From contig CAYSXR010000001.1 of the NCBI GenBank assembly GCA_964435035.1, positions 55,259 to 119,258 on the forward strand: a stretch of DNA of 64,000 bases. Reading direction: 5' to 3'. A program made the position numbers and the translations under genes. The notes under the pieces were generated by a model, which made no database searches, had not been told where the DNA came from, and saw nothing but the letters and a program-made list of their open reading frames with translations. This DNA comes from an uncultured Gammaproteobacteria bacterium (GTDB lineage: Bacteria > Patescibacteriota > Patescibacteriia > Magasanikbacterales > UBA922). Below, piece by piece: positions 3,122 through 25,728 of this stretch; position 1 is the first letter of the stretch, and the number at the start of each line of letters is the position of its first letter.

Positions 3122-3330
3122 AAAAAACACCCTATTCGGGTGTTTTTTAATGTGTCCATTTGGGATATCCCTCTCGGATACCCAGCAGGCATGTCTATTT
3201 TGGTGCACACCCTCAGTCCAGAATTTTTCATCTACAGTCAACCATGGGCTTTTTCGAGGTAGTTTTAAAGGGTAGGGGAACCCGTCTCGGTCGGGGGTCA
3301 ATTTTTATTAAAATGAGACAAATGAGACAC
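3122..3330. repeat. Dispersed ~200-bp repeat, copy A (begins with the AAAAACACCC-loop-GGGTGTTTTT terminator hairpin; ends with tandem AATGAGACA x2)
   Basis: Near-identical to 13602-13804 over the 3' ~150 bp and related to 11646-11846. The hairpin aaaaaacaccctattcgggtgtttttt lies at 3122-3148. Confidence 0.65.
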
Positions 3331-3332
3331 CG

Positions 3333-3360
3333 CATGACTCTTACTAAGAGTCATGTTTTT
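3333..3360 (+). terminator. Hairpin catgactctt-ac-taagagtcatg followed by TTTTT
   Basis: Perfect 10-bp inverted repeat plus a T-tract, seen directly. Confidence 0.45.
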
Positions 3361-3371
3361 AATACTCAAAT

Positions 3372-3421
3372 TTGACATTGCAAATGAATTGCAGTAATAT
3401 ATATTGAAACTCATTTGCAAT
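3372..3421 (+). promoter_or_regulatory. Consensus sigma70-type promoter (TTGACA-17-TAATAT) overlapped by a 10-bp perfect inverted repeat (ttgcaaatga...tcatttgcaa), a likely operator
   Basis: TTGACA at 3372-3377, a 17-bp spacer, TAATAT at 3395-3400. The IR arms are at 3378-3387 and 3411-3420. The RBS and ATG of the downstream gene are at 3455. Confidence 0.45.
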
Positions 3422-3454
3422 TAGCAAATAAGCACGCAAGGAGAATAAGGAAAC

Positions 3455-3817
3455 ATGTCGCAGGGAAAAACGGCTGTAGTAGAAAAGATCGGCACCTTCG
3501 CAAGTATTCTGTGTCTGATTCACTGTCTAGGGCTTGCCATACTGACTCCTCTGATTCCAGTACTCGGTGTTCTCGCCCACAACGAATGGATCGAAATCCT
3601 GTTCTGGGGTGTGGCACTGGCAACTGCCCTCTGGCAAATCTTCCAGACGTGTGGTTGGTTGAGAATCGTATTTATCGGAGCAAGTATCACGGGAACCGTA
3701 GGACTCGCAATCGATGAGCATCTTCTGCTGCATCTAGGCTTCGCGGGAATCGCGCTGGGGCAAATTGTCCTTTTACAAAGAAGGAAAGCAGCACACACGT
3801 GCTCGCATGATCATTGA
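3455..3817 (+). CDS. Small polytopic membrane protein with CxxxC in TM1 and a His/Cys-rich C-terminus (HTCSHDH). Possibly a metal-ion transport or binding protein (MerC/MerT-like guess). GC about 50%, so atypical for this window
   Basis: About four hydrophobic segments, CLIHC and C-terminal HxCxHxH. GC is much higher than the neighbours. Followed by a GC-rich hairpin at 3822-3858. Confidence 0.45.
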   Translation: MSQGKTAVVEKIGTFASILCLIHCLGLAILTPLIPVLGVLAHNEWIEILFWGVALATALWQIFQTCGWLRIVFIGASITGTVGLAIDEHLLLHLGFAGIALGQIVLLQRRKAAHTCSHDH

Positions 3818-3870
3818 CTAGGGGATCGGGAGCGTCCTAACGCGTTCCCGATCTCTACCTAACTATATTT

Positions 3871-4833: not shown

Positions 4834-4837
4834 TCAG

Positions 4838-6250
4838 ATGTTACAGTTATCTCCAAGAATACACTCGCACATTGGGGAATATCTGAGTGACTCTACACGA
4901 GTGCGAAGCGTGTATGAAAAGGCGGGAGGAGCAGTGAATATCGTATTCCCTGAGATTATTGTTGAAAATTATCAGAAATTCAGACAGGTGTGTGAAGAGC
5001 GAGGTGTGAGGCATCAGATCCAATATGCACATAAACCAAATAAATCATCGGCTCTGGTTAGTGCTCTCGCACATATTCCTAGCGCACGGATTGATGTGGC
5101 ATCATCGGGTGAGCTTGAGTCGGCGATTCGCGCAGGATTTGAAGGAATACGAATTTCGGGTGGTGGACCCAAGAACAGACATTATATCTCTTCGTTGATT
5201 AAGGTAGACGCTTCAATTGTCGTGGATAGTATGAGTGAACTCAATGCAGTTATTCAAGAAGTTAAACTGCAACAGAAATGGCAATATCCTGTACTCATGC
5301 GTCTTAATGTGGATAGTATTCTCTCAACCGGTACGGAAAGCAGGTTTGGGATACTCACTCATGAAATCGAAACAGTACTAGAAATCATGGTGAGAGAAAA
5401 AGAATATGTACAGTTTAGAGGGTTTGCTTTTCATATCAATGCAGATGCAAAAAAATTACGGAAACCAATGCTTGAACAAACGCTTGCGTATACCCTGAAT
5501 GCACTTAATCGAGGTCTTCACCCAACAGAGATAAATATCGGCGGAGGATTTGGAGTGAATTATTGCAGCTCGGAAACTGAATGGAATACGTTCACCACTG
5601 CATTAATTGAATCAGTTCAAACGCAGTACAATCATCTGGGATGGAATAAGTCAGGATTAGGATATTGGAGTGAGCAGCGTGTGCTTCGTGGGAGTCCACA
5701 GTTTGCTCCTCAGTATAAAGGAGAAGATCAGTATGAAGAACTCTCCTCGTTTCTTGACGATACAATAGAGAGTTATCGCGCATCTGTAGGAGAGGTGCTT
5801 GCTGATCACATGCTCACACTTGTGATTGAGCCAGGACGTGCACTCCTCGATTCAGTAGGAATTACGGTAACGGAGATCGTGGATAAAAAACATTCATCAT
5901 TCGGTAATAATGTACTTATTGTCGACATGAATCGATCTCAATTGGGAGGGAGTGATCAGATGTATATGGTTGATCCGGTAGTTATTTCCGACGATGAGTC
6001 ACCCAAAGAATACAAGTCATTCGCCACATTTATCGCAGGAAACTTATGTATGAAAAGCGATATGATTGCGAGACGAAAAATATATATGCCCTATGAGCCT
6101 CATTGTGGAGATCTACTCATATTCATAAACACGGCAGGATATTTTATGGATTTTACGGAAAGCCACATGCTCATGCAGCCGATCGCTCCCAAATATGTCG
6201 CATATCTTACCAACGGTGCCTGGGAAAGTATTGAAGATATGAAAATATAA
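4838..6250 (+). CDS. PLP-dependent decarboxylase, Orn/DAP/Arg decarboxylase family 2 (alanine-racemase fold)
   Basis: TIM-barrel N-terminal region and a C-terminal '...FIAGNLCMKSDMIA...GDLLIFINTAGY' pattern typical of DAP/ODC-type decarboxylases. The ATG at 4838 is preferred over the overlapping 4781 start. Confidence 0.5.
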   Translation: MLQLSPRIHSHIGEYLSDSTRVRSVYEKAGGAVNIVFPEIIVENYQKFRQVCEERGVRHQIQYAHKPNKSSALVSALAHIPSARIDVASSGELESAIRAGFEGIRISGGGPKNRHYISSLIKVDASIVVDSMSELNAVIQEVKLQQKWQYPVLMRLNVDSILSTGTESRFGILTHEIETVLEIMVREKEYVQFRGFAFHINADAKKLRKPMLEQTLAYTLNALNRGLHPTEINIGGGFGVNYCSSETEWNTFTTALIESVQTQYNHLGWNKSGLGYWSEQRVLRGSPQFAPQYKGEDQYEELSSFLDDTIESYRASVGEVLADHMLTLVIEPGRALLDSVGITVTEIVDKKHSSFGNNVLIVDMNRSQLGGSDQMYMVDPVVISDDESPKEYKSFATFIAGNLCMKSDMIARRKIYMPYEPHCGDLLIFINTAGYFMDFTESHMLMQPIAPKYVAYLTNGAWESIEDMKI

Positions 6251-6253
6251 TAT

Positions 6254-7588
6254 ATGAAATATACACACATTACGGAAATAATCGGAAACACTCCACTCTT
6301 GGAAATAGATGCTACTATTCATGGAATTCCAAACCTTACTTTATACGCAAAACTCGAATACATGAATCCATTCGGTTCAGTAAAAGACCGTGCAGTGTGG
6401 GGTATGCTTCGGGACGATATTAGTGATCTAAAAGATAAACAGAAAACAATCATTGAAATGTCGAGTGGGAATACGGCAAAAGCAATTCAGGGAATTGCAA
6501 GTACGTTTGGAATACCGTTTAAAACTATTACCAATCGAATCAAGGTGGATGAAGTGAGAGATATTTTACAGATCATGGGAGCCGTGATCGAAGAATTGCC
6601 AGGGAAAAGTGATTGTCATGATCCGAATGACCCAAATGATCCTCTGGTGTATATTCACCGTGAACTCGAACTGGATGCGGACAAGAAGTTTTTTACGTCT
6701 CAGTATAACAATCAAAAAAATTTAGATGAGCATTACCGAACCACGGGAGAGGAAATTATGCGTGACCTTCCGAAAGTGGATTATTATTTCGCAGGACTCG
6801 GCACGACTGGCTCATCTCGCGGCCCGGCATCAAAGATCAAAGAACGTGATCATGATCTAAAGACGATTGGGGTCGTTGCTGCTAAAAATGATTATATTCC
6901 AGGCATTAGAACAAAAGATGAGATTCACGAGGTGGGGTTACTTGATCCTACGTTTTATGAAGAAATTATACCTATAGATTCGCTCAGTGCTCTCAAAGGA
7001 TCACTTCAATTAATACGCAAAGCAGGAGTTATGAGTGGTCCAACAGGGGGAGCGGTATACCAAACTGCAATTGAGTATTTCAAAAAGCATCCGCCCCAAG
7101 AGAAAACAGTAGTGGTATTTATTGTATGCGATCGAGTAGAGTGGTATGTATCATATATCAAAAAACGCATGCCTGAGTTGTGGGGTAATAGTAAAAAACT
7201 ATCATGGAAAGATAGTGGTCTTGAAATCATGTCTCCTAAAGAACTCTCTATCTCTTCTCGTGAATTACATGAGACACTCCATGATCCCTCAGTCATGATT
7301 GTGGATATGCGAACACCACGTGCATTTGCAGCAGCACATATACGGGGTTCGATGAATATGCCCTTTGAGTATCTTGATAGCATGTTTGAGGAAGATGCGA
7401 TGCCTTTTGGAATCGGGAAAAAGATAATTATCGTATGCGCTGTCGGAAGAAAATCGCTCATGGTAACTAATTATCTGAGAAATAAAGGTGTAGACGCACG
7501 ATCGCTTACTAATGGTATTACTGCCTGGAGTATTGAGGGATTTGAGATGTGCAAAACAGATCATGAAGCTTGTGTGCGATCAGTTTAA
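6254..7588 (+). CDS. Fold-type II PLP enzyme (cysteine synthase/CBS-like) fused to a C-terminal rhodanese domain
   Basis: N-terminal IGNTPL...KLEYMNPFGSVKDR (PLP-lysine motif) and C-terminal AHIRGSMN...IVCAVGRKS (rhodanese CxxGxR active-site loop). Confidence 0.55.
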   Translation: MKYTHITEIIGNTPLLEIDATIHGIPNLTLYAKLEYMNPFGSVKDRAVWGMLRDDISDLKDKQKTIIEMSSGNTAKAIQGIASTFGIPFKTITNRIKVDEVRDILQIMGAVIEELPGKSDCHDPNDPNDPLVYIHRELELDADKKFFTSQYNNQKNLDEHYRTTGEEIMRDLPKVDYYFAGLGTTGSSRGPASKIKERDHDLKTIGVVAAKNDYIPGIRTKDEIHEVGLLDPTFYEEIIPIDSLSALKGSLQLIRKAGVMSGPTGGAVYQTAIEYFKKHPPQEKTVVVFIVCDRVEWYVSYIKKRMPELWGNSKKLSWKDSGLEIMSPKELSISSRELHETLHDPSVMIVDMRTPRAFAAAHIRGSMNMPFEYLDSMFEEDAMPFGIGKKIIIVCAVGRKSLMVTNYLRNKGVDARSLTNGITAWSIEGFEMCKTDHEACVRSV

Positions 7589-7589
7589 T

Positions 7590-8177: not shown

Positions 8178-8335
8178 TTGAACGTAAATGCTATGATATA
8201 CTGTATAAATCTCTAACAATTTTTTATGTGCATGGGGTGTGATCTTATAAAACAAGAAATTGCACAAGGTCCGTCGACCATAAGGTAGCTCCCGTAGGGT
8301 ATTCAAATGAAAAGAGAATAGATAAACCTTGTAGT

Positions 8336-9097
8336 GTAATAGTTGACCCAGAGAGAATGCATACCGTAAGGCAAATATTTGAGAAAGTTGCGTACGAAGG
8401 ATGGAGTGGAAGAAAGGTGTATCTGTGGCTCAAGGAAATTAATTTCAAATCAAGAACAGGGAAATATATTACCGTCTCAAATTTATTCACGATTCTCAAA
8501 AACACCTTTTACTATGGTGTTTTTGAATATCCGACCGGGAGTGGCACATGGTACACCGGCAAATATGAATCACTGATTACAAAAGAGTTATTCGACAGAG
8601 TACAGCAGGTACTCAAAGAACATCAAACTAATGCAACCATGAAGAAGAACAAAGAATTCGCATTCACCAGAATGATGACCTGTGGAAATTGTGGTTCAGG
8701 AATCACTGCTGATGAAAAATTCAAACATCAGCAGAATGGGAATGTACATAGGTATGTATATTATGTATGTACGAGGAGTAAAGACCAAAACTGTAGGGGA
8801 GTGAGTATGAATGAAAATGAGGTGATAAAGCAACTAATTGAGATAATAGATAAGGTGAGTCTAGATAAATTAGGAATCAAGCAGAAGCTTGAAGCTGAGT
8901 TGGATCGGTATAGTCAGTTTAGGTATGCAGTGCTTGGGTTAGAGGAGAAGGAATTAGAGAAAAAGAAAGGTGTAGATATGAAGAAGTATGCAAAGTATAT
9001 ATTAGAAAAAGGAGGAGTTCAGGAGAAAAGAGAGTTATTTTTTAATATTAAGAATAAACTAGAATTAAAAGAAAATAAGATAATTTTGAAAACATAA
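8336..9097 (+). pseudogene. 5'-truncated large serine recombinase: recombinase domain, zinc ribbon and coiled-coil are present, but the N-terminal resolvase catalytic domain is absent
   Basis: ERMHTVRQIFEKVAYEGWSGRKVYLWLKE...ILKNTFYYGVFEY matches the recombinase domain. CGNCGS...YYVCTRSKDQNCRG matches the zinc ribbon. The frame is closed by a stop at 8333 with no catalytic Ser domain upstream. Confidence 0.55.
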
Positions 9098-9172
9098 ATA
9101 AGAACTTCTTATAGTCAACTTTGATTGACCAGACTGGTAGGGCGTAGTAGAATCCAGAGTATAATATAAGAT

Positions 9173-11038
9173 ATGTTCTTAAAAAAGATAGTGATTGTTA
9201 ATTTTAAAAGTTGCAGAATTATCGTCCAGGATTTTTCTGAAGATAAGCCGAATATATACATAGGACCAAATGATTCAGGTAAGAGCGTTATTCTTGAGTC
9301 TATAGGTTGCATACTCAATAACAAGAAATTGGATTTTGAGTCAACAGGGAAGATAACTTCGGATGTCTCTAATACTCCAATTGATGAGTTACAATTTAAT
9401 AATTTATTCGTCACACTAAATCTTCCTATTTTTAAGTATGACCCGACATCGATTTATATAATTGGTTTTTTTGAATGTGAAGAATCAGATTCAAAAGAAT
9501 TTTTTGATGAAAATGCATCTAATCATCTTAAATGGAGTAGAGAAAGTTTTTCAGGTAATGATATAGTAATTTTAAAAAAATACTGTATTCAGCAAGAAAA
9601 TGGAGCTACTTTTTTATGTACGAAAGATAGTACTGATCCTTCGACCACTAAAGAATTGTGGAAACAGACTAAAACTGTTCTTGCAGGACTGACAAAGCAA
9701 TTAGGTATCGAAAAAGACGAAATTGATAATGAAAATGGAACTGGACCATTCAAAAATATAGAAGTACTCAGAGCTATTTATGCGAAAAGTGTAACTGAAT
9801 TGTGTTGGAGTGAATATCTTGATTATACTAAGGATTTAAAGACACTGTTCCCCATATTCAGATACTTTGATGCTAAAATTTCAATGGATGATGTAAAATC
9901 TATAGCTAAAGATACTTTGGCGGAAAAAATAGCCCCACATAAAGAAAAAATTGCTAAAGAAGCTGAAAAGATTAGTAAGGATGTAAGCGATGAAATAAAC
10001 AAGGATCTAAAAGAATTATCTGAAAAATTATTTGCAGATTTAGACTCGGTAAAAAGTATACAAATGGGGGTTAATTTTAATATACAGGAAAATATTTCAG
10101 ATGTTATTGTTCAAAAGTCTTCTAGTGATGGTGACATCAAATTAGATTCGCAGGGTGATGGTATTAAAAAACAAATATGGCTTGCCTTAATAAAATGGAA
10201 AAGCATGCAATCTATAAATGAGGGAGAGAAAAGCAAAAAAATGATTTGGTGTTTTGACGAGCCTGAAATACATTTATTTCCAAAAGCACAACGAAATTTA
10301 TTCACTGATATTAAAAATATATCAAAAGGAGTAGTTCAAAGTTTTGTCTGTACACATTCAACGATTTTTATTGATAAATTCGATATTGATTCAATACGAT
10401 TAGTTTCTCTTGAAAATCAATATTCTGTAGTATCTTCTTGTAAAGATGTTTCTGATATCCACTCTTCTTTATGTGTTAAAAATAGCGATATACTATTTCA
10501 TGATAAATTTTTTGTGGTCGAGGGTGAGACTGACATGCTCTTAATGCCACATTTTTATAAACTACACTTTGGTAGAGATATCAAAGAAGATAATATTCAA
10601 TTAATACATCTAGGGGGTAAAGATAATAGAAAGAAAAACTTAGAAATTTTTAACCAAATTTTGGAAGGTTTTAAGAAGCAAGATGATCTTGTTAATTATT
10701 TTTTCGATGGGGACTCGGCAATTCCTGCTACTGATAATGTATGTGTGATAGGTAGGTATGATATGGAGGATAGTATTTCTGATGAAATTTGGGTAAAACT
10801 TGTGAAAGAATCTTGTGATTTTGATATAACCACCTCTGATTTGCAAGAAATAAGAAGTTGTTTGGGCACCGAGCGTGATAAAAAATTTCATAAGTTATTA
10901 TCTAATCTTCTTGCGTCTAAGAATTCTCCAAAGTATTTACCGTCGAAAGGGCAAACTTTGGCTAATGAGTTAATTAAAATAATAAAGGCCGAACATGTGC
11001 CTAAAGAAATTTTAGAATTCTTTAAAAAAATAAAATAG
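9173..11038 (+). CDS. OLD-family ATP-dependent nuclease (ABC-type ATPase plus C-terminal Toprim), with a GajA/class-2 OLD-like architecture
   Basis: Walker A GPNDSGKS near the N-terminus, Walker B IWCFDEPEIHLF, Toprim VVEGETD plus DGDS. 621 aa, about 27% GC. Confidence 0.65.
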   Translation: MFLKKIVIVNFKSCRIIVQDFSEDKPNIYIGPNDSGKSVILESIGCILNNKKLDFESTGKITSDVSNTPIDELQFNNLFVTLNLPIFKYDPTSIYIIGFFECEESDSKEFFDENASNHLKWSRESFSGNDIVILKKYCIQQENGATFLCTKDSTDPSTTKELWKQTKTVLAGLTKQLGIEKDEIDNENGTGPFKNIEVLRAIYAKSVTELCWSEYLDYTKDLKTLFPIFRYFDAKISMDDVKSIAKDTLAEKIAPHKEKIAKEAEKISKDVSDEINKDLKELSEKLFADLDSVKSIQMGVNFNIQENISDVIVQKSSSDGDIKLDSQGDGIKKQIWLALIKWKSMQSINEGEKSKKMIWCFDEPEIHLFPKAQRNLFTDIKNISKGVVQSFVCTHSTIFIDKFDIDSIRLVSLENQYSVVSSCKDVSDIHSSLCVKNSDILFHDKFFVVEGETDMLLMPHFYKLHFGRDIKEDNIQLIHLGGKDNRKKNLEIFNQILEGFKKQDDLVNYFFDGDSAIPATDNVCVIGRYDMEDSISDEIWVKLVKESCDFDITTSDLQEIRSCLGTERDKKFHKLLSNLLASKNSPKYLPSKGQTLANELIKIIKAEHVPKEILEFFKKIK

Positions 11039-11047
11039 GTTTAAACT

Positions 11048-11587
11048 GTGAAAGAAAAGAATTTTCAAAAGATGTTTGACGTGGATAGGCTCGAGTATAA
11101 TCTGAGAATATCGTCATTATATTTAACAGCCTATGAACTCTTAAAAAGTTCAATAGTGGACAGGCTTGTTAGTTTTTTTTCAGATTTTAATTATAAAGAT
11201 GGTAAGCCTGTAAAAACACTTGAATATAAAAATGAGCTTAATAAATTTGATAAAAATGATAAATTTAGAGCTTCATGTCTATGGCTTCATGATATGAAAG
11301 CCTTAGATATGAAGGATGTAACTGAAATTCTAAAAATTAGAGAACATAGAAATGAAATTGCTCATGAACTAGCAAAATTTTTGATAGATGATACGCAAGA
11401 GATCGATATAAATAAATTCCACAGTATCAATAATTTATTAAAAAAAGTTGATGTTTGGTGGATTATTAATTTCGAGATGACTATTATGCCAGACTTTAAT
11501 ATTAATTCAGAACAAGGTGTAAATGAAGTGGAATCTGGTAATATGCTCCTTTTGGAATATTTAATATCAAAAGTTAAAATAAGTTGA
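11048..11587 (+). CDS. hypothetical protein (179 aa), probably co-transcribed with the OLD-family gene
   Basis: 9-bp gap from the upstream gene and the same AT-rich composition. No motif recognised. Confidence 0.4.
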   Translation: MKEKNFQKMFDVDRLEYNLRISSLYLTAYELLKSSIVDRLVSFFSDFNYKDGKPVKTLEYKNELNKFDKNDKFRASCLWLHDMKALDMKDVTEILKIREHRNEIAHELAKFLIDDTQEIDINKFHSINNLLKKVDVWWIINFEMTIMPDFNINSEQGVNEVESGNMLLLEYLISKVKIS

Positions 11588-11645
11588 ATAAAGTTCAAGA
11601 AATGTAATGTAGTTTTAAGGATATTCAGTAAAATTAATAACAAAA

Positions 11646-11846
11646 CAAAAACACCCGAATTCGGGTGTTTTTAGGAGGGGATGACTAGCGGTCACCCTCC
11701 AGGGTGTGTCCAACAGTGTGCACCACCACGGTCCAGATAATTACACCTACAGTCAACCAAGGGATTTTATAGGGGTATTTTTAGGTAGTGAGGGATGCCT
11801 CTCGGTCGGGGGTCAGTTTCTATGGGAAATGAGACAAATGAGACAG
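11646..11846. repeat. Dispersed ~200-bp repeat, copy B (hairpin aaaaacacccgaattcgggtgttttt at 11646-11672; ends ...aatgagacaaatgagaca)
   Basis: Shares the hairpin, the 'gatgactagcggtcaccctccaggg-gtgtccaacagtgtgc' block, 'ctacagtcaacc', 'ctctcggtcgggggtca' and the terminal tandem 9-mer with copies A, C and D. Confidence 0.6.
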
Positions 11847-11919
11847 TTTATAAGATAGGTGAAAAAGAGCTAATTTAAGCAAATTTTGCTAGGTTGAGTC
11901 AAATTATTGCATAAATACC

Positions 11920-11948
11920 TTGACAAAATCATTAATATATGGTATACT
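11920..11948 (+). promoter_or_regulatory. Consensus promoter TTGACA-17-TATACT, followed by a 10-bp perfect inverted repeat (gtacaggcac...gtgcctgtac, 12012-12057) in the leader
   Basis: Seen directly. The downstream RBS AAGGAG is at 12101 and the ATG at 12114. Confidence 0.4.
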
Positions 11949-17239: not shown

Positions 17240-17240
17240 T

Positions 17241-18320
17241 ATGAAAGAACTCACCGTCTCGCTTCCTCATGGAAAAAAACAAAAGATTTATATAGGCTCA
17301 AATTTGAGTGAGCGTCTGGTGGAAATTACGCGAAAAGAATATGACCGAGTATTTTTAGTAATTGATAAAGAGGTATATAAGAGGTATAAAGTTTTTATAC
17401 AGAATTTAATTTCAAAGATAAAACCAGTGTCAATACATGTGATAAGAGCAGGTTCAAAAGATTTATCAGAAAGTGTAAAACTTATTAATGCAATGGTGGA
17501 GGCAGAGTTGAACCGAAATAGTTGCGTGCTTGCATTTGGAGGAGGATATGTGGGTGATTTGGTAGGATTTTGCGCGTCAATTTACATGCGGGGTATTGAT
17601 ATGCTGTATTATCCGACTACGTTTATTTCCCAGGCTGATACTGTATTAGGAAAAGTTGGTGTCAATTATGATAATCATAAACATATTTTAGGAAGTTTCT
17701 TTTGTCCACGTTACACATTTTGTGATGAAGAGTTCTATCCCAAGAATGTATCAGAAAGTTTTTTATACGGACTAGTCGAAGTATGGAAGCATACACTCAT
17801 CAAAGAAGACAAGATTGTTTCGGACTACGTTGATGGTGCATTATTTCATAAAGAACTTCCTCCATTTGAAACAATCACATATCGATCAGTTGCAGCAAAG
17901 AAATTTTTTGTGCAAAATGATTTTCATGACACGAAAGGTCTGCACAAAGCTTTGAGTCTCGGACATACACTTTCAAATCACTTAGAATCTTTGGCAGAAA
18001 TACACCATGGTGTGGGAGTATTGATCGGTATTATTTTTGATACATTTTTATCAAAAGAACTAGGGCTTATTGATGATAAAAAGATGGGTTCAATATTGCG
18101 AATAGCGTCTCAGTTTAAAGAAAATTTTACAATTCCTCGGTCTATAGCGAGTATACTTAAAAGTAAGAATTTTTTAAGACGTGTTAAGTATGACAAGATC
18201 AATTCCCATAGTACCTTTACATTTGTTTTGCCCACTACCAAAGGTTATGTGATTAAAAAAGATATATCTGAGATAATGGTACAAAATGCGATTCGGTCTC
18301 TAAATAAATTTTTGCTATGA
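17241..18320 (+). CDS. Sugar-phosphate cyclase of the 3-dehydroquinate-synthase superfamily (DHQS/DOIS/EEVS-like)
   Basis: AFGGGYVGDLVGFCASIYMRGIDMLYYPTTFISQADTVLGKVGVNY closely matches the DHQS NAD/phosphate-binding core. GHTLSNHLE and HHGVGV match the metal ligands. Confidence 0.6.
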   Translation: MKELTVSLPHGKKQKIYIGSNLSERLVEITRKEYDRVFLVIDKEVYKRYKVFIQNLISKIKPVSIHVIRAGSKDLSESVKLINAMVEAELNRNSCVLAFGGGYVGDLVGFCASIYMRGIDMLYYPTTFISQADTVLGKVGVNYDNHKHILGSFFCPRYTFCDEEFYPKNVSESFLYGLVEVWKHTLIKEDKIVSDYVDGALFHKELPPFETITYRSVAAKKFFVQNDFHDTKGLHKALSLGHTLSNHLESLAEIHHGVGVLIGIIFDTFLSKELGLIDDKKMGSILRIASQFKENFTIPRSIASILKSKNFLRRVKYDKINSHSTFTFVLPTTKGYVIKKDISEIMVQNAIRSLNKFLL

Positions 18321-19435
18321 AAATACACCTAAAATCTCCAATATCTGACAGTTGGAGACAAGATGCTTTAAAAAAAATAAAAGACATTCAGGAAAAGAAT
18401 CCAGGCATTTCTATAACTAAAGAGCTACTGGGTGGAGCAACGAATACTCTTAAATATTTAGCAACATTTGATGGAGCTAAACTTTTTATTAAAATCGGAG
18501 AAAAAGTCGAACGTGAAAAAGAAGTGTATAAGCAAATAGAAGATAATGATATTTTTTTAAAAAACGTAAATCTGCAAAATGAATCCTCAGATCTTTTAGT
18601 GCTTCCTTATTATGAAGGGGTTTCTTTAGAAGAAAAAACATTACAAAATCCTTCAGAAATAGCTAAGCATACTAAATTAATTATAGAAGTTTTACAGAGA
18701 ACGTTTTCAAAGTATTGGGTGAGGAACATAAAAAAGAACGGAGGTAGTGATTTTGGAGTGAGTTTGTTGAAAAAGCGCTATCTTGAATTAAATAATCATA
18801 TTAATGCAATTTCATTCGAAAGTGGTGATGAATATAGTTTTGATGGTTTTGCTACTCGTCCAGTAGTGATACAGAAAAATAACAAAGAAATTAAGCTCCC
18901 CTCAATAAAGCAGATGACGGAGAAAATTCTCAAACTACTTGATAAACTTAAGCCTTATGATGGGTACGGGATATTAGGTGATTTTCAACCGCCAAATATT
19001 CTGATTTCAAAGGAAGGAATAAAAATAGTAGATATTTCAAATGTTGTAGATGCGGGCGACATTGCGTTCGATATTGGAAAATTTTTCAATTACTATAATA
19101 GATTTTTTTCAATTGCAGTAGTACGTGATGGTCATAAGAATAATAATTCTCATAAAATTACTATTAAAAATGGTATCATATATGTACATCAAGAAAAAGA
19201 TCATTACTCATATGCAGATAAAAAAATCATTGAAACGGTGGAAGAGGATTTTTGTGTGCATGTTGCTAAAGAATTGAATGATTACACAATTTCAGACCGA
19301 GTAAAATTGTATAAATTTGTTGTTTCTCTACTAACCATTAAAAGACATCTACAGTTCGATGGGTTAGATGAAATGCTTATTGGAAATCTTGTTGACGCAT
19401 ATTACGAGATACATAGAAAAGTTTTACATATATAA
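18317..19435 (+). CDS. APH/choline-kinase-fold small-molecule kinase
   Basis: Glycine-rich N-lobe, catalytic ILGDFQPPNILIS and DISNVVDAGD...DIG (Brenner-type motif and DFG-like). Confidence 0.45.
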   Translation: MKIHLKSPISDSWRQDALKKIKDIQEKNPGISITKELLGGATNTLKYLATFDGAKLFIKIGEKVEREKEVYKQIEDNDIFLKNVNLQNESSDLLVLPYYEGVSLEEKTLQNPSEIAKHTKLIIEVLQRTFSKYWVRNIKKNGGSDFGVSLLKKRYLELNNHINAISFESGDEYSFDGFATRPVVIQKNNKEIKLPSIKQMTEKILKLLDKLKPYDGYGILGDFQPPNILISKEGIKIVDISNVVDAGDIAFDIGKFFNYYNRFFSIAVVRDGHKNNNSHKITIKNGIIYVHQEKDHYSYADKKIIETVEEDFCVHVAKELNDYTISDRVKLYKFVVSLLTIKRHLQFDGLDEMLIGNLVDAYYEIHRKVLHI

Positions 19436-19436
19436 T

Positions 19437-20702
19437 ATGACAAGAAGAATTGAAGGATCGCTTGTTTCTCACGAGCATACAAATCCTAAACAAGAAATAA
19501 CAACACTTGAGAGATTAGAGGCAAATGCTGAAAAATGGGTGCTTTCATTTCTTGAAAATGAAGGTATAACTGGAGCATCAGTCACTGAAATTAATAAAAC
19601 AACAAAGAGCGTTTTTGGGTCAGTTGAATTTGGAGAAAAAAAACACTTCTTTAAAATTTCTGATGCAGAAAAAATTGCCTATGAGCTTGAAGGCTACAAG
19701 ATTGCGGAGGACTACAAACATGAGACGATCCACCATCATTATTTTGATGCAGAAGAAGGTTATGGACTATACATACAAGATTACTGTGATGAAGTAAGTG
19801 TTGATTCGGGTCTTGCAATACATGAGATAAATAGCGCTCTTGGCAAATCACCCGAAGAACAAAAAAAGATTGAGGATAAATTGGCAGAGGTATATCGAAA
19901 AATTCATGAAATATTTGAATCAACGCTTACTGAGGATAGATATGTTTTGTCAGGTAGGAACGATGCATTCTTCCATGAACGACTTAAAAAAGATGGACGT
20001 ATTGATAGCTATTATGGAAAAAGGAGTTTTAAATTTGAAGATTCAAAAAAAGATATCGTTGCTGAGGAGTTATTTACGTATTTAATTAGCTGCAATGGAG
20101 AAGACGGAATTGTCATACAAGATGTTATTGAAAAAGCACAACATGATCTTGATCCTGAAAAACCTCGCGTATTCGTGGTGTCCCAAGGAGACTTAACAGA
20201 GAGTAATGTTAGTGTAGAAGGAACTTTTTTTGACTTTGAAGCAGCTGGTTTAAATTCATTGATTCAGGAATTAGCTATTTATTTGGTATATACATATGTG
20301 AATGGTCACTACATCACCCCAAAGTATTCAAAGTCTACTGATCAAACATTTTCAAAGCAATTCGAACAATCAATTACAACCGAATATGTTCTTGATGAAG
20401 AAAGTAAAAAAATGGATATAGTAATGAATTATCCATTACCTGAATTAAAGCGAGCCCTCATCGAACGTTTTACAGATATTGTAATAGCTCCTATAGAAAG
20501 AAAATTAAATCCAGCTGAAAGTACTCAACTCGTTAAAGAATTACAATCTGCAATTGCATTGCGTCTGATTGCGGTTAAGAATATACTCAAATTTGAAGAA
20601 AAGGACGTATTGGTAACGCTCGGACTTTTGAGCAAATTATGTAAGGCGGGAGATGAAAAAACTTTAGAAGAATTTATAAAACAACGTTTTGTTAGTATAT
20701 AG
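19437..20702 (+). CDS. Second kinase-like protein (APH fold, more divergent)
   Basis: VFVVSQGDLTESNVSVEG...FDFEAAG resembles the hGDlhpgNvlv...iDfE catalytic loop. The ATG at 19437 is preferred. Confidence 0.3.
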   Translation: MTRRIEGSLVSHEHTNPKQEITTLERLEANAEKWVLSFLENEGITGASVTEINKTTKSVFGSVEFGEKKHFFKISDAEKIAYELEGYKIAEDYKHETIHHHYFDAEEGYGLYIQDYCDEVSVDSGLAIHEINSALGKSPEEQKKIEDKLAEVYRKIHEIFESTLTEDRYVLSGRNDAFFHERLKKDGRIDSYYGKRSFKFEDSKKDIVAEELFTYLISCNGEDGIVIQDVIEKAQHDLDPEKPRVFVVSQGDLTESNVSVEGTFFDFEAAGLNSLIQELAIYLVYTYVNGHYITPKYSKSTDQTFSKQFEQSITTEYVLDEESKKMDIVMNYPLPELKRALIERFTDIVIAPIERKLNPAESTQLVKELQSAIALRLIAVKNILKFEEKDVLVTLGLLSKLCKAGDEKTLEEFIKQRFVSI

Positions 20703-20704
20703 TT

Positions 20705-21685
20705 ATGAACATCACTTCACTTATTGATAAAAATAAAAAAACTATTTTGAGCCTTGATCTGGATAACACGATAGTAAATCGAAAGAAAGGGGATAATTAT
20801 GTACTACCTGCTCTTAAGAAAGCTCTCGAAAGGATAATGAAAAGCGAATCGATTATCCCTGTTATCAATACAGGACGCGACATTATCGGATATCGCGCAT
20901 TCCAGCGAGAAGTGTTGGATATCGGCGATGCAGTTCTTGGATCAGGAACATTGATAGTTCATGACAATACGATAGATTTAAATGAAAAAGGTTTTATTGA
21001 TGTCGTGTGTATTGAAATTCTGGAGAATGCCGTGAAAAAAGGTAAATTGCCTTTTATAGATATAACTCATGCAGAAGGTAGGATCATTGTATATAATGAA
21101 CAGGAAGTTAAAGATCTTAACGCAGAAGACCTATTTTATTCTCAGACACCAAGAACATGGTTTGAAACCAAACAACCGATAACTAAAATTAATGATTATA
21201 TACGTCCAAAACACATTTTCCGTATTGAAATCCCAGTCTTTAAAGATCATATAGAAAATCTCTATAATGAACTAGTTAATAAATCAGATGATGCATTGGT
21301 AGATTTAAATAAGTTTTTGCATTCCGAGATTGATATACGGAAGTTTGTCCTTAACAGAAAAGTATTTTTTAATGATTCATTTCAAGGAAGAGTAATTTTT
21401 GGAAGGTTCCAGAAAAGCGAATCTGAGATGAATAAAGGTTTTGGTCTCCAAAAATGGTTAGCCTCCAAAGAGTTTACACCTCTAGATTTTAATATCTTCC
21501 ATATAGGAGATAAAGATAAAGGTTTAGTGAATGACGTACTTATTAAAGATCATGTACCCAATGCCCATATTATAATGGTTAATAGTAGGACAAAAAATAA
21601 TCCGGCTGTAAGTTTGTATCTAGAAGGAGATACTGATAAAAGCATTGTAGAATTTATAACAAGTATTGTTGAAGCCTATGTTTAA
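20705..21685 (+). CDS. HAD-superfamily phosphatase-like protein
   Basis: N-terminal LSLDLDNTIV (DxDxT motif I) and a length of 326 aa. Confidence 0.35.
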   Translation: MNITSLIDKNKKTILSLDLDNTIVNRKKGDNYVLPALKKALERIMKSESIIPVINTGRDIIGYRAFQREVLDIGDAVLGSGTLIVHDNTIDLNEKGFIDVVCIEILENAVKKGKLPFIDITHAEGRIIVYNEQEVKDLNAEDLFYSQTPRTWFETKQPITKINDYIRPKHIFRIEIPVFKDHIENLYNELVNKSDDALVDLNKFLHSEIDIRKFVLNRKVFFNDSFQGRVIFGRFQKSESEMNKGFGLQKWLASKEFTPLDFNIFHIGDKDKGLVNDVLIKDHVPNAHIIMVNSRTKNNPAVSLYLEGDTDKSIVEFITSIVEAYV

Positions 21686-22247
21686 AAAAAAGATATTTTC
21701 TCAAAACGATTTACATTGGATTAATTACTTTATTATCAAAGAAGATCGTGAGAAGATGGGGGAAAAAATTAAAGGGACTCGTACAGAAAAGCTATTTGCA
21801 TTTAAGAGTGGAGACTATTCACATATACAAGAAATAGTAGGATGGGTTGCTGACATATTAGATACTGACCCTATCGTAATTGTCCCATATCCATCGACTA
21901 ATCCAAATAAAGATAAAAGTATTCAACTTCCGTATGTAGTAGCAGGGGAACTCGCAAAAATAAACAAGAATTGGATTGATGGATCAGGATATCTTAAGCG
22001 TAAATTTGAGTTACCTAAAAATACCAGAGATGTTAATTCGCAGTATGAAAGTTTGGAATTTGAATTAAACAAGGAATTTAAGAATTTTCCTATTCTACTA
22101 CTTGATGATGTGACCACCTCTGGTAGTTCACTTGAAGCAGGGCTAAAGGTAATCCGAGAGAAAAGTGAAAAGGGACAAGAAATTAGCAGTCTTGCGGTGG
22201 CAAAGAAGGTTTTCTTGAAAGAAGTTCCACCAGGAGCTTTATATTAG
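21678..22247 (+). CDS. Type I phosphoribosyltransferase-domain protein
   Basis: PILLLDDVTTSGSSLEAG matches the PRPP-binding motif. Confidence 0.4.
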   Translation: MFKKKIFSQNDLHWINYFIIKEDREKMGEKIKGTRTEKLFAFKSGDYSHIQEIVGWVADILDTDPIVIVPYPSTNPNKDKSIQLPYVVAGELAKINKNWIDGSGYLKRKFELPKNTRDVNSQYESLEFELNKEFKNFPILLLDDVTTSGSSLEAGLKVIREKSEKGQEISSLAVAKKVFLKEVPPGALY

Positions 22248-22251
22248 AATT

Positions 22252-23433
22252 ATGCTGTATTACATAAGCCATAGTGCTGTTGAAAAGGAAGAGCGTGGAA
22301 ATCAACTCCAGGTTAAGCTGTCTTTTGAATATGTATCAAAAAAGATTCCAGTAGTAGGGATATTTTTAAGTGGCAAAAAGAAGATATATACCAAGATACA
22401 GCATGCGGGCAATAAATATATAATTGACTATAACACTTGCTTTGATTGGATCGAAAAAATATTGGGTATTATTTCTTTTAAGAAAAATATTACTCCAAGT
22501 TTATTTGCCTTTAAAAGCAGTAAAATAATAAAAAAAGATACTCAAGAAAAAGACGTTTATTTGCGAATTTTTAGTCTTATTGACGGTATCTTCTTTATTA
22601 AAAGAATGAATAAATTCAAGATACGTAAGCTTGCGTGTGAGTTCCATGACATTGATTATAAGTTGCCAATGTACAAAAAGAACATAGACAGAATCTTTAG
22701 AAAATATATTTTTAAGTCTTTTATTAAACATGCGGTAAATGCCGGAGAAAAAGTAACCTTGGTAACGGTATCGCATACCTTAGCTGAACAATTTTCTAAA
22801 GAATTTAGCTATCCATATAAAATCGCTGTAATCCCTAATGGTCATAATTTTGAACATTTAGAGCCTAAAAATAAATATTCTTTTGGGAACGACCATATAA
22901 AGATTATTTATACAGGCTTGAATTTGTATAAAATGAAAGGACTCAATCATCTTATTGAAGCTTTAGATTTTCTTGACCATAGATTTTTAGTGCATATCAT
23001 TGGGGGAACCGATGCACACCGCAATGAACTTAATCAGAAATATAAAAAATTTGTAGCTCAAAAAAGGTTGATTATTGATCCACCGAAAAATCATCAGGAA
23101 ATGATAGGTTATATGCAAAAAGCTGATCTTGCGGTAATTCCACTTCCTAAGAATGATTTTTCTTTATTTACTTCGCCATTAAAATTGTTTGAGTATATGG
23201 CTGCGGGGTTACCAATTGTGGCGAGTGATGTACCGACAATCAAAGAAGTTATTAATGATAGGCAAGACGGTCTGTTGTATGAAGCTGGAGATGTGCATTC
23301 TATGGTCCAAATGATTAAAATTTTAGTTAGTCATAAAAGTTTAGCTGAAACTATAGGAAAAGGAGCGTATAGAACCTCTAAAAATTATACATATGAGAAA
23401 CGTGCAGAGAGAATATTAGAGATTTTTAATTAA
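22252..23433 (+). CDS. Glycosyltransferase family 1 (GT4-like, GT-B fold)
   Basis: C-terminal FTSPLKLFEYMAAGLPIVASDV...DGLL matches the GT1 E-x7-E region. Confidence 0.55.
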   Translation: MLYYISHSAVEKEERGNQLQVKLSFEYVSKKIPVVGIFLSGKKKIYTKIQHAGNKYIIDYNTCFDWIEKILGIISFKKNITPSLFAFKSSKIIKKDTQEKDVYLRIFSLIDGIFFIKRMNKFKIRKLACEFHDIDYKLPMYKKNIDRIFRKYIFKSFIKHAVNAGEKVTLVTVSHTLAEQFSKEFSYPYKIAVIPNGHNFEHLEPKNKYSFGNDHIKIIYTGLNLYKMKGLNHLIEALDFLDHRFLVHIIGGTDAHRNELNQKYKKFVAQKRLIIDPPKNHQEMIGYMQKADLAVIPLPKNDFSLFTSPLKLFEYMAAGLPIVASDVPTIKEVINDRQDGLLYEAGDVHSMVQMIKILVSHKSLAETIGKGAYRTSKNYTYEKRAERILEIFN

Positions 23434-23538
23434 AAAAAATTACTTTTTATTTCATTTTACTAAACAAAAAAACTGCAGAAGAAGGAGGGTACTTCAGCAG
23501 GTTATTATGCCTCATAAGGAGGTAATTATATTATAATT

Positions 23539-23997
23539 TCACTTCTTCTTAAACTTACTATCTCCCTTAATAAGGCCAACCAAATCCTCCTCCCGCTCAT
23601 ACCCTCGTAACCTCCCACTCACATATCCCATCCTATAACTCACCCCGTCACTCGTGAGTCTCCAATTCGTATCCTTCAAGGTCTTCTTAAGTATTTTCTT
23701 CAACTCATACTCACTTTCCTGTTGAGGACGATCACTCTTACTATCATAGATGCCAAACGGCACAATCACATCTTTGGTAATCTGAGGAGGAGATAACTGT
23801 AACTTAGTATATCCTTCATTCTCTAACGTAGTACTAAGCAGTTTTTCAAGATCAAGAATCGTGAGCTTCTGAATCTTTGCAACTTTCTCATACAACTCAG
23901 TATTCGCTTCTTTCTCTTTCCATTCTTTGACCATGTCCCCAATGCGCTCAATACCAGCGAATTCTATTCTCCATTTTTCTCCCTCTTCTTCTGACAA
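23539..23997 (-). CDS. hypothetical protein (152 aa; TTG start). Overlaps the upstream ORF by 34 nt, so it may be the frameshifted 3' part of one gene
   Basis: Lys/Glu-rich ORF in the same orientation as, and overlapping, 23964-24263. Confidence 0.3.
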   Translation of the reverse strand: MSEEEGEKWRIEFAGIERIGDMVKEWKEKEANTELYEKVAKIQKLTILDLEKLLSTTLENEGYTKLQLSPPQITKDVIVPFGIYDSKSDRPQQESEYELKKILKKTLKDTNWRLTSDGVSYRMGYVSGRLRGYEREEDLVGLIKGDSKFKKK

Positions 23998-24263
23998 ACA
24001 AAACCTGGCACGGTCAGCTTCAAAATGTAGATCAGGTACATCAGTCTGAACTGTTCTTTTGTATCTGAATTTACTAAGTATATAGGAGCAAAAGCAGAGC
24101 CACCCTCAAAAGTAACGGATGTTTTATTTTTGCTTAATGCAGAGGCTAAAAGTTTAAGAGCGCTTTCGCACTCTAATATATTATCCCCATGAATTCTTAA
24201 ATGCTGGATTCGTGACATTTTAGACGTTATATAATGAAAATACGATAACATTTTTTGTTCCAA
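23964..24263 (-). CDS. hypothetical protein (99 aa)
   Basis: ORF only. Confidence 0.3.
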   Translation of the reverse strand: MEQKMLSYFHYITSKMSRIQHLRIHGDNILECESALKLLASALSKNKTSVTFEGGSAFAPIYLVNSDTKEQFRLMYLIYILKLTVPGFVCQKKREKNGE

Positions 24264-24339
24264 GATACAAATTTGAGATTTATTTAAGCATTGACAAAAC
24301 CAACTTTTGATCCTACATTAGAAGAGTAAATTTTAGTTA

Positions 24340-25623
24340 TTGAAGTTTGTTAAAAAATTATTTCTTATGGAGGATCAGCCTACAGCATTAGATTATCACC
24401 TTAATAAAAAACCTCATAGAACGTATGTGAGCAAATCCTTAAAGAGAACAAATCCCGTGGACAATACCACACATTTTACGAGAATTGTTAGTAAGGTTGT
24501 CGACTGTAAGAATTTTTACGAGATGTATAAAGAAAAGAACTCAGTAGTTTTAAGGTTAAGTCCGGGAGAAAGGCAGGAAGTGATAGCGAAGGTCGATGAG
24601 GATAGTAGGGGATTTTACTTACTTATACAAAGATTTAATAAAAGATCAGGCACCCCTACTCAAGAATCTTTTTGTTTTAGGTCTGATGAATTGAAAAAGC
24701 TTTTAGACTTTATAGAATCCTTGTCAATTATTGATTTTAGTGACAAGAACAAATTTAAAATTGAGGATGCTGCATTATTAGCAGCAAAAAAATTACTCAA
24801 TGATGATCCAGATTTAGCACTAGAAATTATTCAAAATAAAATTACGAAATCTGACGTTGTTGCTCTTGCTTACCGTAAAACTCAGTTGCAGATATTTCAT
24901 AACTTGCTAAATGATGAAAGTTTTTTTGAAATGAAAAAAAACGAATGGAACAAAGCCAGAAACGAAGATGTTTGGCAGTATTTTTTTGAAGAAAATAAGT
25001 GGATTTTTGGTTATGGTCTAAACTTTGTATTTAACTCTTCTCTCGAGGGGAAAAAACTAGAGCAAGTTATTAAAGGGGCAGATTTGGAAAATGCAGGTAA
25101 ACGTGTGGACGCTCTACTCAAGACAAGAGGAATAATTAATTCCCTTTGTTTAGTTGAAATAAAAACGCATCTTACCCCGTTGTTGAAACAAGTAAAAAAT
25201 TCATATCGCTCAGCTGCATGGAGCGTCTCTGATGAATTTAATGGCGGATTGGTGCAAACACAAAAAACTTCGCAAATTGCATTGGAAAATATAAAAAACA
25301 AATTTGAAACTACAGACAATGAAGATAATCCAACTGGTGAAACGATTTATTCTTATAAACCAAAATCGTATTTGATAATAGGAAGTCACCGAGAGTTTCT
25401 GGCAGATAATGGATTCGTTAATAAAGAAAAATATTCTTCCTTTGAGTTATTTAGAAAAAATATTCTTAATCCAGAGGTAATAACTTTTGACGAATTATAT
25501 GAACGAGCTAAATTTATTGTTCATGATAATGAAAAGAGTGCAGAAAAAAAGGATGAAAGTATTGTGGAGGTAGAAGCAGAAGAGACGATAAATGAAATCA
25601 ATATAAGTGATATACCTTTTTAA
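24340..25623 (+). CDS. Protein with a C-terminal PD-(D/E)xK nuclease-like core. Possibly Shedu/DUF4263-like
   Basis: ...RVDALLKTRGIINSLCLVEIKTH...Q gives D-(x15)-E-x-K. The N-terminal 230 aa are unassigned. Adjacent to a tRNA. Confidence 0.35.
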   Translation: MKFVKKLFLMEDQPTALDYHLNKKPHRTYVSKSLKRTNPVDNTTHFTRIVSKVVDCKNFYEMYKEKNSVVLRLSPGERQEVIAKVDEDSRGFYLLIQRFNKRSGTPTQESFCFRSDELKKLLDFIESLSIIDFSDKNKFKIEDAALLAAKKLLNDDPDLALEIIQNKITKSDVVALAYRKTQLQIFHNLLNDESFFEMKKNEWNKARNEDVWQYFFEENKWIFGYGLNFVFNSSLEGKKLEQVIKGADLENAGKRVDALLKTRGIINSLCLVEIKTHLTPLLKQVKNSYRSAAWSVSDEFNGGLVQTQKTSQIALENIKNKFETTDNEDNPTGETIYSYKPKSYLIIGSHREFLADNGFVNKEKYSSFELFRKNILNPEVITFDELYERAKFIVHDNEKSAEKKDESIVEVEAEETINEINISDIPF

Positions 25624-25650
25624 AACCTATTTTAATAACTTAAATTAAAC

Positions 25651-25728
25651 AAAAACACCCAAACGGGTGTTTTAATGTGTCCTTCAGGACTATGACTAGC
25701 GGTCACCCGGGAGGGGTGTCCAACAGTG
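25651..25728. repeat. Partial copy D of the dispersed repeat (hairpin aaaaacacccaaacgggtgtttt plus the 'tgactagcggtcacccgggaggggtgtccaacagtg' block), abutting the 3' flank of tRNA-Leu
   Basis: Shares about 75 bp with copies A, B and C, then runs directly into the tRNA instead of the remainder of the repeat. Confidence 0.55.

Follow-up and report, generated by a model that had tools for sequence, protein, structure and literature searches.

Composite repeats beside tRNA-Leu(GAG) in a Magasanikbacteria-type genome as probable junctions of serial site-specific insertions

The 64-kb stretch of contig CAYSXR010000001.1 analyzed here, the whole of which we refer to as the window, contains four copies (A to D) of a ~200-bp repeat that lie on one side of a tRNA-Leu(GAG) gene. 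With a probability of roughly 0.7, these repeats are attachment (att)-type junctions left by serial site-specific insertions at the 3′ end of this gene. The locus represents a variant of the well-known build-up of genomic islands; its unusual trait is the lack of a recombinase gene in every one of the cassettes. Four observations are central to this assignment: the composite anatomy of the repeats, the fixed position of the junction within them, the nativeness of one of their two parts, and the existence of occupied and unoccupied sites among relatives. Loci and contigs of related genomes are denoted by L-numbers (such as L044 or L081).

An alignment of the copies confirmed all four members of the repeat family given in a preliminary description of the window (Table 1), all of them in the same orientation, and revealed a two-part anatomy: All four copies share module 1, which comprises a hairpin and ~55 bp. 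Copies A, B, and C then continue into a module 2 of ~125 bp, whereas copy D runs from module 1 into the tRNA. Module 2 contains the blocks GTCCAGA, CTACAGTCAACCAWGG, and TCTCGGNCGGGGGTCA and ends with two tandem copies of the 9-mer AATGAGACA, which are located ~105 bp from the junction. The conserved blocks AATGAGACAAATGAGACA, GACTAGCGGTCACCC, TCTCGGTCGGGGGTCA, and CTACAGTCAACCAWGGG each occur three times in the window if up to three mismatches are allowed (shuffle expectation 0.12–0.35; 0 of 100 shuffles reach three occurrences); the 9-mer is not enriched overall in the search (22 found versus 21 in shuffles). The near-identity of copies A and C, previously put at about 150 bp, amounts to 92% over 133 bp and to 97% over module 2. 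Copy D had rightly been called partial, yet it is the resident, tRNA-linked copy and not a truncated element: It ends within the last 3 nt of tRNA-Leu(GAG).

The copies had also been described as dispersed, which is incorrect, as all of them lie within a single variable region that is linked to, and ends at, tRNA-Leu(GAG). Neither scans with the conserved blocks nor a profile built from the three full copies A, B, and C detected further copies elsewhere in the window. Outside the window but in the same genome, the profile did identify a fifth copy, Z (L076 5458–5610), which lies 2.8 kb to the left of position 1; it is decayed and internally deleted, and is both the farthest from the tRNA and the most decayed of the copies. 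Among relatives, the profile matched a full-length module-2 copy in L081 (E 7e-53) and a module-2 copy in L065 (E 1.6e-22), the latter 6.3 kb from tRNA-Leu at the far island edge, in the same orientation relative to the tRNA as the window copies and with a flank that is orthologous to the left flank of Z. Exact-pattern scans for module 2 gave 0 hits in the genome contigs and 0 hits in each of two runs on the metagenome contigs; among three patterns run against the viral contigs, the composite one gave 0 hits and the 18-mer and 15-mer hits were unrelated (coding repeats, GAGACA iterons). Several independent assemblies break at or beside the locus, namely L001/L076 (in copy A), L028 (A to C), L082 (starts in the repeat), L084, and L079; upstream of it, L044 and the P0007 relative offer no further sequence, as both contigs end at or near the locus. 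Such breaks are expected from repeats or population heterogeneity, and islands of this kind are probably under-represented in metagenome-assembled genomes (MAGs).

To what module 1 corresponds became evident from related genomes. A scan of species-representative genomes with the last 22 nt of tRNA-Leu yielded eight loci, in which the tRNA-Leu is identical at 81–82 of 83 positions and the gene order on the downstream side is the same (sugar transferase, glycosyltransferases). According to the protein names, these loci belong to Candidatus Magasanikbacteria, a group of the Candidate Phyla Radiation (CPR). Module 1 directly follows tRNA-Leu in L044, L045, L048, L062, L065, L067, L072, and L073, island-free genomes included, where the tRNA is succeeded by a ~55-nt trailer with a small hairpin and then by the terminator AAAAACACCC..GGGTGTTTTT. 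Because of this position in the relatives, the hairpin of the repeats is identified as the native tRNA-Leu(GAG) terminator and the adjoining ~55 bp, judged by sequence comparison, as the native 3′ trailer of this tRNA. The preliminary description had correctly noticed that the hairpin is present in all copies but had missed this identity. Trailers come in two main types, with additional variants: The type-1 trailer (..GGTGACCGCTAGTCATCCC..) of L045, L067, and L072 equals that of window copies B, C, and D, the type-2 trailer (CCAAAATAGACATGCCTGCTGGGTGTCCGAGAGGGAT..) of L044 and L062 is 90–92% identical to copy A module 1, other variants are found in L048, L065, and L073, and L053 has the terminator only. 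Module 1 of copy A is accordingly a copy of the 3′ trailer and terminator of tRNA-Leu that has been displaced from the gene. A small hairpin is present in every trailer type, with sequences that differ between the types. Beside Z and beside the far copy of L065, the adjacent gene points away from the hairpin, so that the hairpin can there terminate transcripts of the tRNA strand only.

Two further observations concern the tRNA and its hosts. Type-2 trailers (L044/L062) begin with CCA right after the discriminator base, i.e. the CCA end is genome-encoded, whereas type-1 trailers (window 25720–25731, L045, L067) begin with CAC and do not encode it; as the trailer types differ in this respect, the tRNA-adjacent segment decides whether enzymatic CCA addition is needed. 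Five MAGs titled "uncultured Gammaproteobacteria" (L044, L045, L053, L062, L067) carry the Magasanikbacteria-type locus with near-identical tRNA-Leu and 70–90% identical flanking genes, and their taxonomic labels are probably wrong.

Module 1 ends with GTGC, the last three bases of which are the 3′ end of the tRNA, and module 2 always starts exactly where the tRNA would, directly after this GTGC. Wherever module 1 gives way to the tRNA or to module 2 (A, B, C, D, L065, and L081), it does so after the same GTGC, and it is here that the homology between tRNA-linked and module-2-linked copies stops. This fixed junction holds across three different trailer types, and the only invariant stretch around all six aligned junctions is AACAGTGTGC. 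Moreover, Z, A, B, C, and D form co-oriented direct repeats, each segment ending with hairpin and trailer, and the copies lie only between the conserved flank and tRNA-Leu, which supports an origin by serial insertion.

Comparison of relatives provides sites with and without an insertion. L067 is unoccupied: An RNase P RNA gene and a gene of the metallo-beta-lactamase fold converge on the hairpin (the convergent gene being 58 bp away), followed by the trailer and the tRNA, and neither module 2 nor a recombinase is found there. Decisive are L074 and L081, which constitute a before/after pair. In both, one end of a serine-recombinase island is formed by the same 296-aa gene, the hairpin, and a type-1 trailer; in L074 this trailer is joined via GTGC to tRNA-Leu, whereas in L081 it is joined via GTGC to module 2, which is succeeded by six genes (S66 peptidase, AlaX-like, methyltransferase, two dCTP-deaminase-like, NUDIX), a different hairpin and trailer, and finally GTGC and tRNA-Leu. 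Since the pair shares the 296-aa gene, the hairpin, and the trailer, L081 is best described as L074 plus a 4.9-kb segment, reaching from module 2 to its own trailer, that appears to have been inserted exactly at the tRNA 3′ end. A different, hairpin-bounded kind of insertion occurs at the same hotspot in L073, a 93%-related genome, where two AAAACACCC..GGGTGTTTT hairpins beside tRNA-Leu enclose just one minus-strand gene, which is low in GC and encodes 273 aa, and no module 2 (6037–6972).

In the proposed mechanism, an incoming segment would carry module 2 on its tRNA-distal side and its own hairpin and trailer, ending with ..GTGC, on its tRNA-proximal side. Insertion would take place directly behind GTGC, a motif that includes the three terminal tRNA nucleotides: The tRNA would thereby gain the trailer and terminator of the incoming segment, while the old trailer and terminator would become fused to module 2, which generates the ~200-bp "repeat". 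Every new insertion would displace the older segments away from the tRNA. As none of the module-2 segments encodes a recombinase, the enzyme would have to act in trans. In this scheme, module 2 is predicted to be the arm that a protein binds on the element side of the attachment site, with the tandem AATGAGACA as predicted arm-type binding sites; our confidence in the latter assignment is much lower than in serial insertion as such.

Several points weigh against serial insertion. No integrase or transposase is encoded in any of the six module-2 segments seen, and scans of all their genes with Pfam, PADLOC, and PHROGs did not detect an own integrase near one end. The only recombinase of the locus is the large serine recombinase of neighboring islands, which lack a far-end trailer copy. 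A second set of 9-mers is missing at the opposite segment ends. The trailer types flanking a segment are not always matched (Z/A, L065), so that extra events have to be assumed, and A and C are 97% identical in spite of their expected age difference. Furthermore, module 2 is carried by three genomes only, to which the genome, metagenome, and viral pattern scans add none, and neither an excised circle nor a restored empty site was seen within one population.

The large serine recombinase was considered as the responsible enzyme. Full-length versions are encoded in L045, L074, and L081, truncated ones in L065 and in the window, where the ~160-aa catalytic N-terminus is missing. The enzyme is a less likely candidate, and insertions at the tRNA are not assigned to it, because a far-end trailer copy is missing from its islands in L045 and L074 and because the junction lacks the dyad symmetry of serine-integrase att sites. 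A tyrosine recombinase fits better, given the short identity block AACAGTGTGC at the junction and the distant tandem repeats, although our confidence in this enzyme class is likewise much lower than in the insertions themselves. The 340-aa protein encoded between copies B and C was evaluated as a hidden recombinase. It gave no Pfam, PADLOC, or PHROGs hit and belongs to an unannotated family (491 cluster representatives) in which the motifs GGAAR..RDIDIV and TRDFTINE are invariant; a profile comparison matched it weakly to the CCA-adding enzyme 1miv (E 0.018). By these nucleotidyltransferase motifs and the 1miv match, the protein is assigned to the class II nucleotidyltransferases (related to CCA-adding enzymes and poly(A) polymerases), and the recombinase reading was rejected. 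Its gene neighbors a tRNA gene with a type-1 trailer, which lacks an encoded CCA.

The preliminary description had offered three readings of the repeat: a MITE-like mobile repeat, a recombination target that captures foreign genes, and a structured small RNA (sRNA). The second comes closest to the evidence, the other two do not. In the sRNA reading, which we regard as unlikely, the copies would be a minus-strand gene family in which module 2 and the trailer are transcribed in the direction of the tRNA and ended by the shared terminator. Functional sRNAs cut from tRNA 3′ external transcribed spacers provide a likeness for this, and the hairpin is natively the tRNA-Leu terminator on the minus strand. 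The 3′ part of the minus strand folds as two hairpins plus terminator and resembles RNAI weakly (23.5 bits, E 0.016, over the trailer), this being the best sub-threshold Rfam match; no Rfam family, however, matches module 2, including in a 241-nt search at E up to 10, and searches of the window and of copy B at gathering and permissive thresholds gave only tRNAs and terminator-driven noise. The persistence of trailer hairpins with differing sequences across the trailer types would likewise be in line with a functional RNA. Consensus folding of the full copies and of module 2 on both strands supported nothing beyond the terminator and the trailer hairpin: For module 2, the consensus of five sequences of 69–97% identity folds weakly, with −9 kcal/mol for the minus strand, −13 kcal/mol for the plus strand, and at most one compensatory pair, several predicted pairs being broken in one or two of the five sequences, a number that confers low power. 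When single sequences are folded, the two strands give similar, modest z-scores (−2 to −3) that mainly reflect the terminator. In copy B, a plausible promoter (TTGACT-18-TTAAAT) lies about 30 nt upstream of the 9-mers, but none is conserved across the copies, and the terminator of the Hsp70-like gene directly precedes copy C. Above all, an sRNA family leaves the fixed junction and the before/after pair unexplained. For module 2, the structured-sRNA reading is thus unsupported by Rfam and by covariation on either strand; with module 1 as a putative functional trailer RNA, it is compatible. The block-wise conservation of primary sequence in module 2 fits protein-binding DNA better than a structured RNA, with five sequences giving this comparison little power.

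Other identities of module 2 were rejected. ARAGORN and Infernal found nothing that would indicate a decayed tRNA or tRNA-like element, and an alignment to tRNA-Leu by eye was unconvincing. As a small open reading frame (ORF) it fails because the frame is not conserved between A and B and is interrupted by a stop codon in B. A diverged LOOT RNA (RF03000), a metagenome-derived motif, was considered as well, and the presence of this genuine structured RNA at an analogous position and strand in L045 and L074 is also a point in favor of the sRNA reading: Like module 2, LOOT sits at the tRNA-distal island edge of the same tRNA-Leu locus, on the strand of the tRNA, and with ~130 nt has about the length of module 2. 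In contrast to LOOT, however, module 2 neither matches the LOOT model (241-nt search, E up to 10) nor shows covariation, and it is not paired with a full-length large serine recombinase gene. The LOOT RNAs themselves (L045 356–488, minus strand, 72.8 bits; L074 4354–4489, minus strand, 71.2 bits; gathering score 46.4) are located ~120 bp upstream of, and divergent from, such a gene. L081 has the same recombinase and has lost LOOT. The link between LOOT and serine-recombinase islands in CPR genomes may merit a survey.

It is also improbable that the array arose without any dedicated recombinase. According to this explanation, hairpin/trailer and module 2 would serve as portable patches of homology by which strains swap cassettes through RecA-type homologous recombination after DNA uptake, and the GTGC junction would have been created once and inherited since. 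The segments indeed contain no recombinase, gene conversion could explain the 97% identity of A and C, and the copies are mosaic, A resembling D just after the hairpin and C in module 2. The single-gene insertion of L073, bounded by two hairpins only and devoid of module 2, and the breaks of several assemblies at the locus point in the same direction. What decides against it is that three trailer types are found fused to module 2, each time at the same GTGC: As these share no other homology, homologous exchange cannot create such joins, and the invariant block of 10 bp is too short for efficient RecA recombination.

An integron-like cassette array with the repeats as attC-type folded sites is very improbable. 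The array resembles integrons in being ordered and co-oriented, with a boundary repeat at the end of each segment and foreign single genes adjoining the repeats. In contrast to integrons, it is anchored at a tRNA, no IntI-type integrase is encoded in the window or the related loci, and the attC architecture is missing: The repeat is not a two-armed imperfect palindrome, and its only RYYYAAC-like word, GTCCAAC, is absent from A and C. Moreover, the segments are 2–12 kb long and multi-gene, with own promoters. Least probable of all is a dispersed non-autonomous transposon of the miniature inverted-repeat type (MITE), which would suit the ~200-bp size, the intergenic location, and the multiple copies but fails because the alignment shows neither terminal inverted repeats nor target-site duplications at the copy ends, because the copies in the window and the related loci occupy a single locus in one orientation and are all joined to the same GTGC, and because half of the unit is native tRNA trailer.

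The closest parallels to serial insertion at tRNA-Leu(GAG) are known island arrays at tRNA genes. Integration sublocations in tRNA and transfer-messenger RNA genes have reportedly been classified by Williams (2002), including elements that cross over at the tRNA 3′ end with an identity block. With such arrays the locus shares insertion beside a tRNA, a junction within its last nucleotides, direct repeats that bound the segments, older insertions that are pushed outward and decayed, a defense-rich cargo, and occupied and unoccupied relatives. It differs from them in the make-up of the duplicated block, to which the tRNA contributes 3 nt only, the remainder being trailer and terminator, so that a segment of the window replaces the tail of the tRNA and not its body. 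In addition, no window segment encodes an integrase, and the 125-bp arm with the tandem 9-mers is the only element-specific sequence that is shared here. In the tycheposons of Prochlorococcus, elements stand side by side, parted only by a partial tRNA copy, and their arrays are read as successive integrations that push older elements deeper into the island (bioRxiv 10.1101/2020.12.28.424599). Anchor, direct repeats, ordering, and decay gradient are common to tycheposons and the window array. Tycheposons, however, possess their own tyrosine (or small serine) recombinase, replication genes, and partial-tRNA repeats, whereas no tyrosine recombinase or primase was found here, the repeat is composed of trailer and module 2 with 3 tRNA nt only, and the host is a CPR bacterium.

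Reading from the conserved flank towards the tRNA, the array consists of Z, genes for proteins of 1407 and 445 aa, copy A, a MerC-like gene and a four-gene operon, a recombinase-OLD remnant, copy B, the 74-aa and 340-aa genes, copy C, an Hsp70-like gene, a UvrD-like helicase gene, eight further genes, Shedu, copy D, and the tRNA. The low-GC genes next to the copies had been taken for native ones. The genome baseline is ~40% GC, and genes of ~30% GC are island cargo, much of which consists of defense genes; it includes the OLD-family nuclease, Shedu, and the UvrD-like helicase. Part of the history of the first segment can be traced in L044, where the PALP-rhodanese gene, the methyltransferase gene, and the small ORF stand directly beside a type-2 trailer and tRNA-Leu. 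This trailer matches the type-2 old trailer that lies upstream of the same operon in copy A. The small ORF (MCMGCDLIKQEIAQGPSTI..), intact in L044, is fused in the window at 8284 to codon ~162 of the recombinase; the deletion behind this fusion removed the catalytic domain of the recombinase and, presumably, the trailer/hairpin copy of that segment.

Table 1. Coordinates of the repeat modules, neighboring genes, and segments in the window, from left to right.
Feature	Position	Strand	Remarks
Copy A module 1	3122-3206	-	Hairpin 3122-3148 and type-2 tRNA-Leu trailer ending GGTGC
Copy A module 2	3207-3330	+	Blocks GTCCAGA, CTACAGTCAACCATGG, TCTCGGTCGGGGGTCA, and AATGAGACA x2 (3312-3329)
MerC-like gene promoter	3372-3400	+	TTGACA-17-TAATAT
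MerC-like gene, high-GC	3455-3817	+	GC3 (GC content at third codon positions) 0.50; opens the segment that starts with copy A module 2
Rest of first segment	3871-8283	+	ParA/CbiA-like, PLP decarboxylase, PALP-rhodanese, methyltransferase, start of small ORF (8228-8283)
Serine-recombinase island remnant	8284-11645	+	Recombinase ORF 8357-9097, OLD-family nuclease 9173-11038, 179-aa gene
Copy B module 1	11646-11721	-	Hairpin 11647-11672 and type-1 trailer ending AACAGTGTGC
Copy B module 2	11722-11846	+	9-mers at 11828-11845
74-aa orphan ORF, high-GC	12114-12338	+	GC3 0.81; promoter TTGACA-17-TATACT at 11920-11948
340-aa protein gene	12559-13581	+	Last gene of the smallest segment (1.96 kb)
Copy C module 1	13602-13680	-	Hairpin 13602-13630 and type-1 trailer
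Copy C module 2	13681-13804	+	9-mers at 13786-13803; 97% identical to copy A module 2
Hsp70/YegD-like gene, high-GC	13886-15169	-	GC3 0.67
tRNA-proximal segment, low-GC cargo	15401-25623	+	UvrD-like helicase, DHQ-synthase-like, glycosyltransferase, unknowns, Shedu SduA (24340-25623)
Copy D	25651-25731	-	Hairpin 25651-25673; trailer and terminator now serving tRNA-Leu; last 3 nt (25729-25731) are the tRNA 3′ end
tRNA-Leu(GAG)	25729-25810	-	Anchor of the insertion hotspot

Each of the copies A, B, and C had been described as standing next to a foreign high-GC gene with a consensus promoter of its own. The three neighbors are real outliers, their GC3 values (Table 1) comparing with a median of 0.31 over 51 ORFs, and near-consensus promoters of the sigma-70 type were found for two of them, the MerC-like gene and the 74-aa ORF. 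With ~6 GC-rich ORFs among the 51 of the window, adjacency in three of three cases is expected by chance about once in a thousand. In L065, the MOSC-domain gene beside module 2 is the only GC-rich gene of the locus (GC3 0.675), whereas in L081 the gene beside module 2 is of ordinary composition. The adjacency is hence real in four of five intact copies but neither universal nor exclusive: Two GC-rich genes of the window stand apart from module 2, a 201-aa gene (59787–60392, minus strand) directly after the terminator of tRNA-Leu(CAA) (60501–60585) and a predicted lipoprotein gene (~49770–50188, minus strand) that abuts the terminator 49699–49726, both with a GC3 of about 0.6, an AT-rich promoter region, and a GC-rich 3′ hairpin. 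Homologues of the Hsp70/YegD-like protein are encoded in L077 (1037–2293) and L078 (3375–4655), with 84% and 48% identity, respectively; their genes form GC-rich islets (0.52–0.61) in contigs of ~0.32 GC, and that of L078 is separated by ~240 bp from a tRNA-Thr(GGT) gene, the 3′ end of which faces it. All these genes have an AT-rich promoter region, their high GC being limited to the ORF and its 3′ hairpin. The search for a donor of the 74-aa ORF gave no homologue. We conclude that the lineage has a recurrent intake of single genes from high-GC donors, and that these tend to land at terminator and tRNA-flank hotspots, including the end of module 2.

CPR (Patescibacteria) genomes are tiny, and little is known about how they gain genes. 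We have considered, with little confidence, that module 2 is the capture site of an integron-like gene-acquisition platform in these bacteria whose recombinase is supplied in trans and which preferentially installs high-GC ORFs right beside the 9-mer end. Segments would dock at the tRNA-Leu 3′ end, the foreign ORFs would be placed downstream of resident AT-rich promoters, and the high-GC donors would possibly be host organisms. If true, such a platform would explain why four of the five intact copies have as their neighbor a lone GC-rich gene in which the high GC is limited to the ORF and the 3′ hairpin.

Some local features of the locus are recorded here. In the promoter region of the MerC-like gene (3372–3440), the palindromic words TTGCAAATGAATTGCA and, downstream, TCATTTGCAATTAGCAAAT overlap and follow the −35/−10 hexamers and look like a metal-responsive repressor operator. 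Between the 74-aa ORF and the 340-aa gene, just upstream of the terminator 12486–12500, lies a motif that resembles a type III hammerhead ribozyme (12425–12479, plus strand). It is complete, with three stems, the cores CUGAUGA and GAAA, and CUC as the cleavage triplet, and reaches 28.3 bits in a 711-nt search (E 7.7e-4; gathering score 48.5). Immediately after the sugar transferase gene, six 9-bp units (AAAGCCTGA / AAGGCCGGA / AATGCTTGA ...) occupy 27332–27384.

Read as serial insertions, the locus is an ordered record of at least five events (~28 kb) at one tRNA gene, with much of the cargo devoted to anti-phage defense. The recombinase-less segments share a 125-bp end, and with each of them the tRNA receives a new trailer and terminator. 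That GC-rich single genes recur indicates frequent recent import from high-GC donors. Module 2 together with the GTGC junction would provide a sequence handle for such islands in MAGs, where assemblies usually break, and if the enzyme is identified, a mobilizable cassette system in CPR bacteria would be defined.

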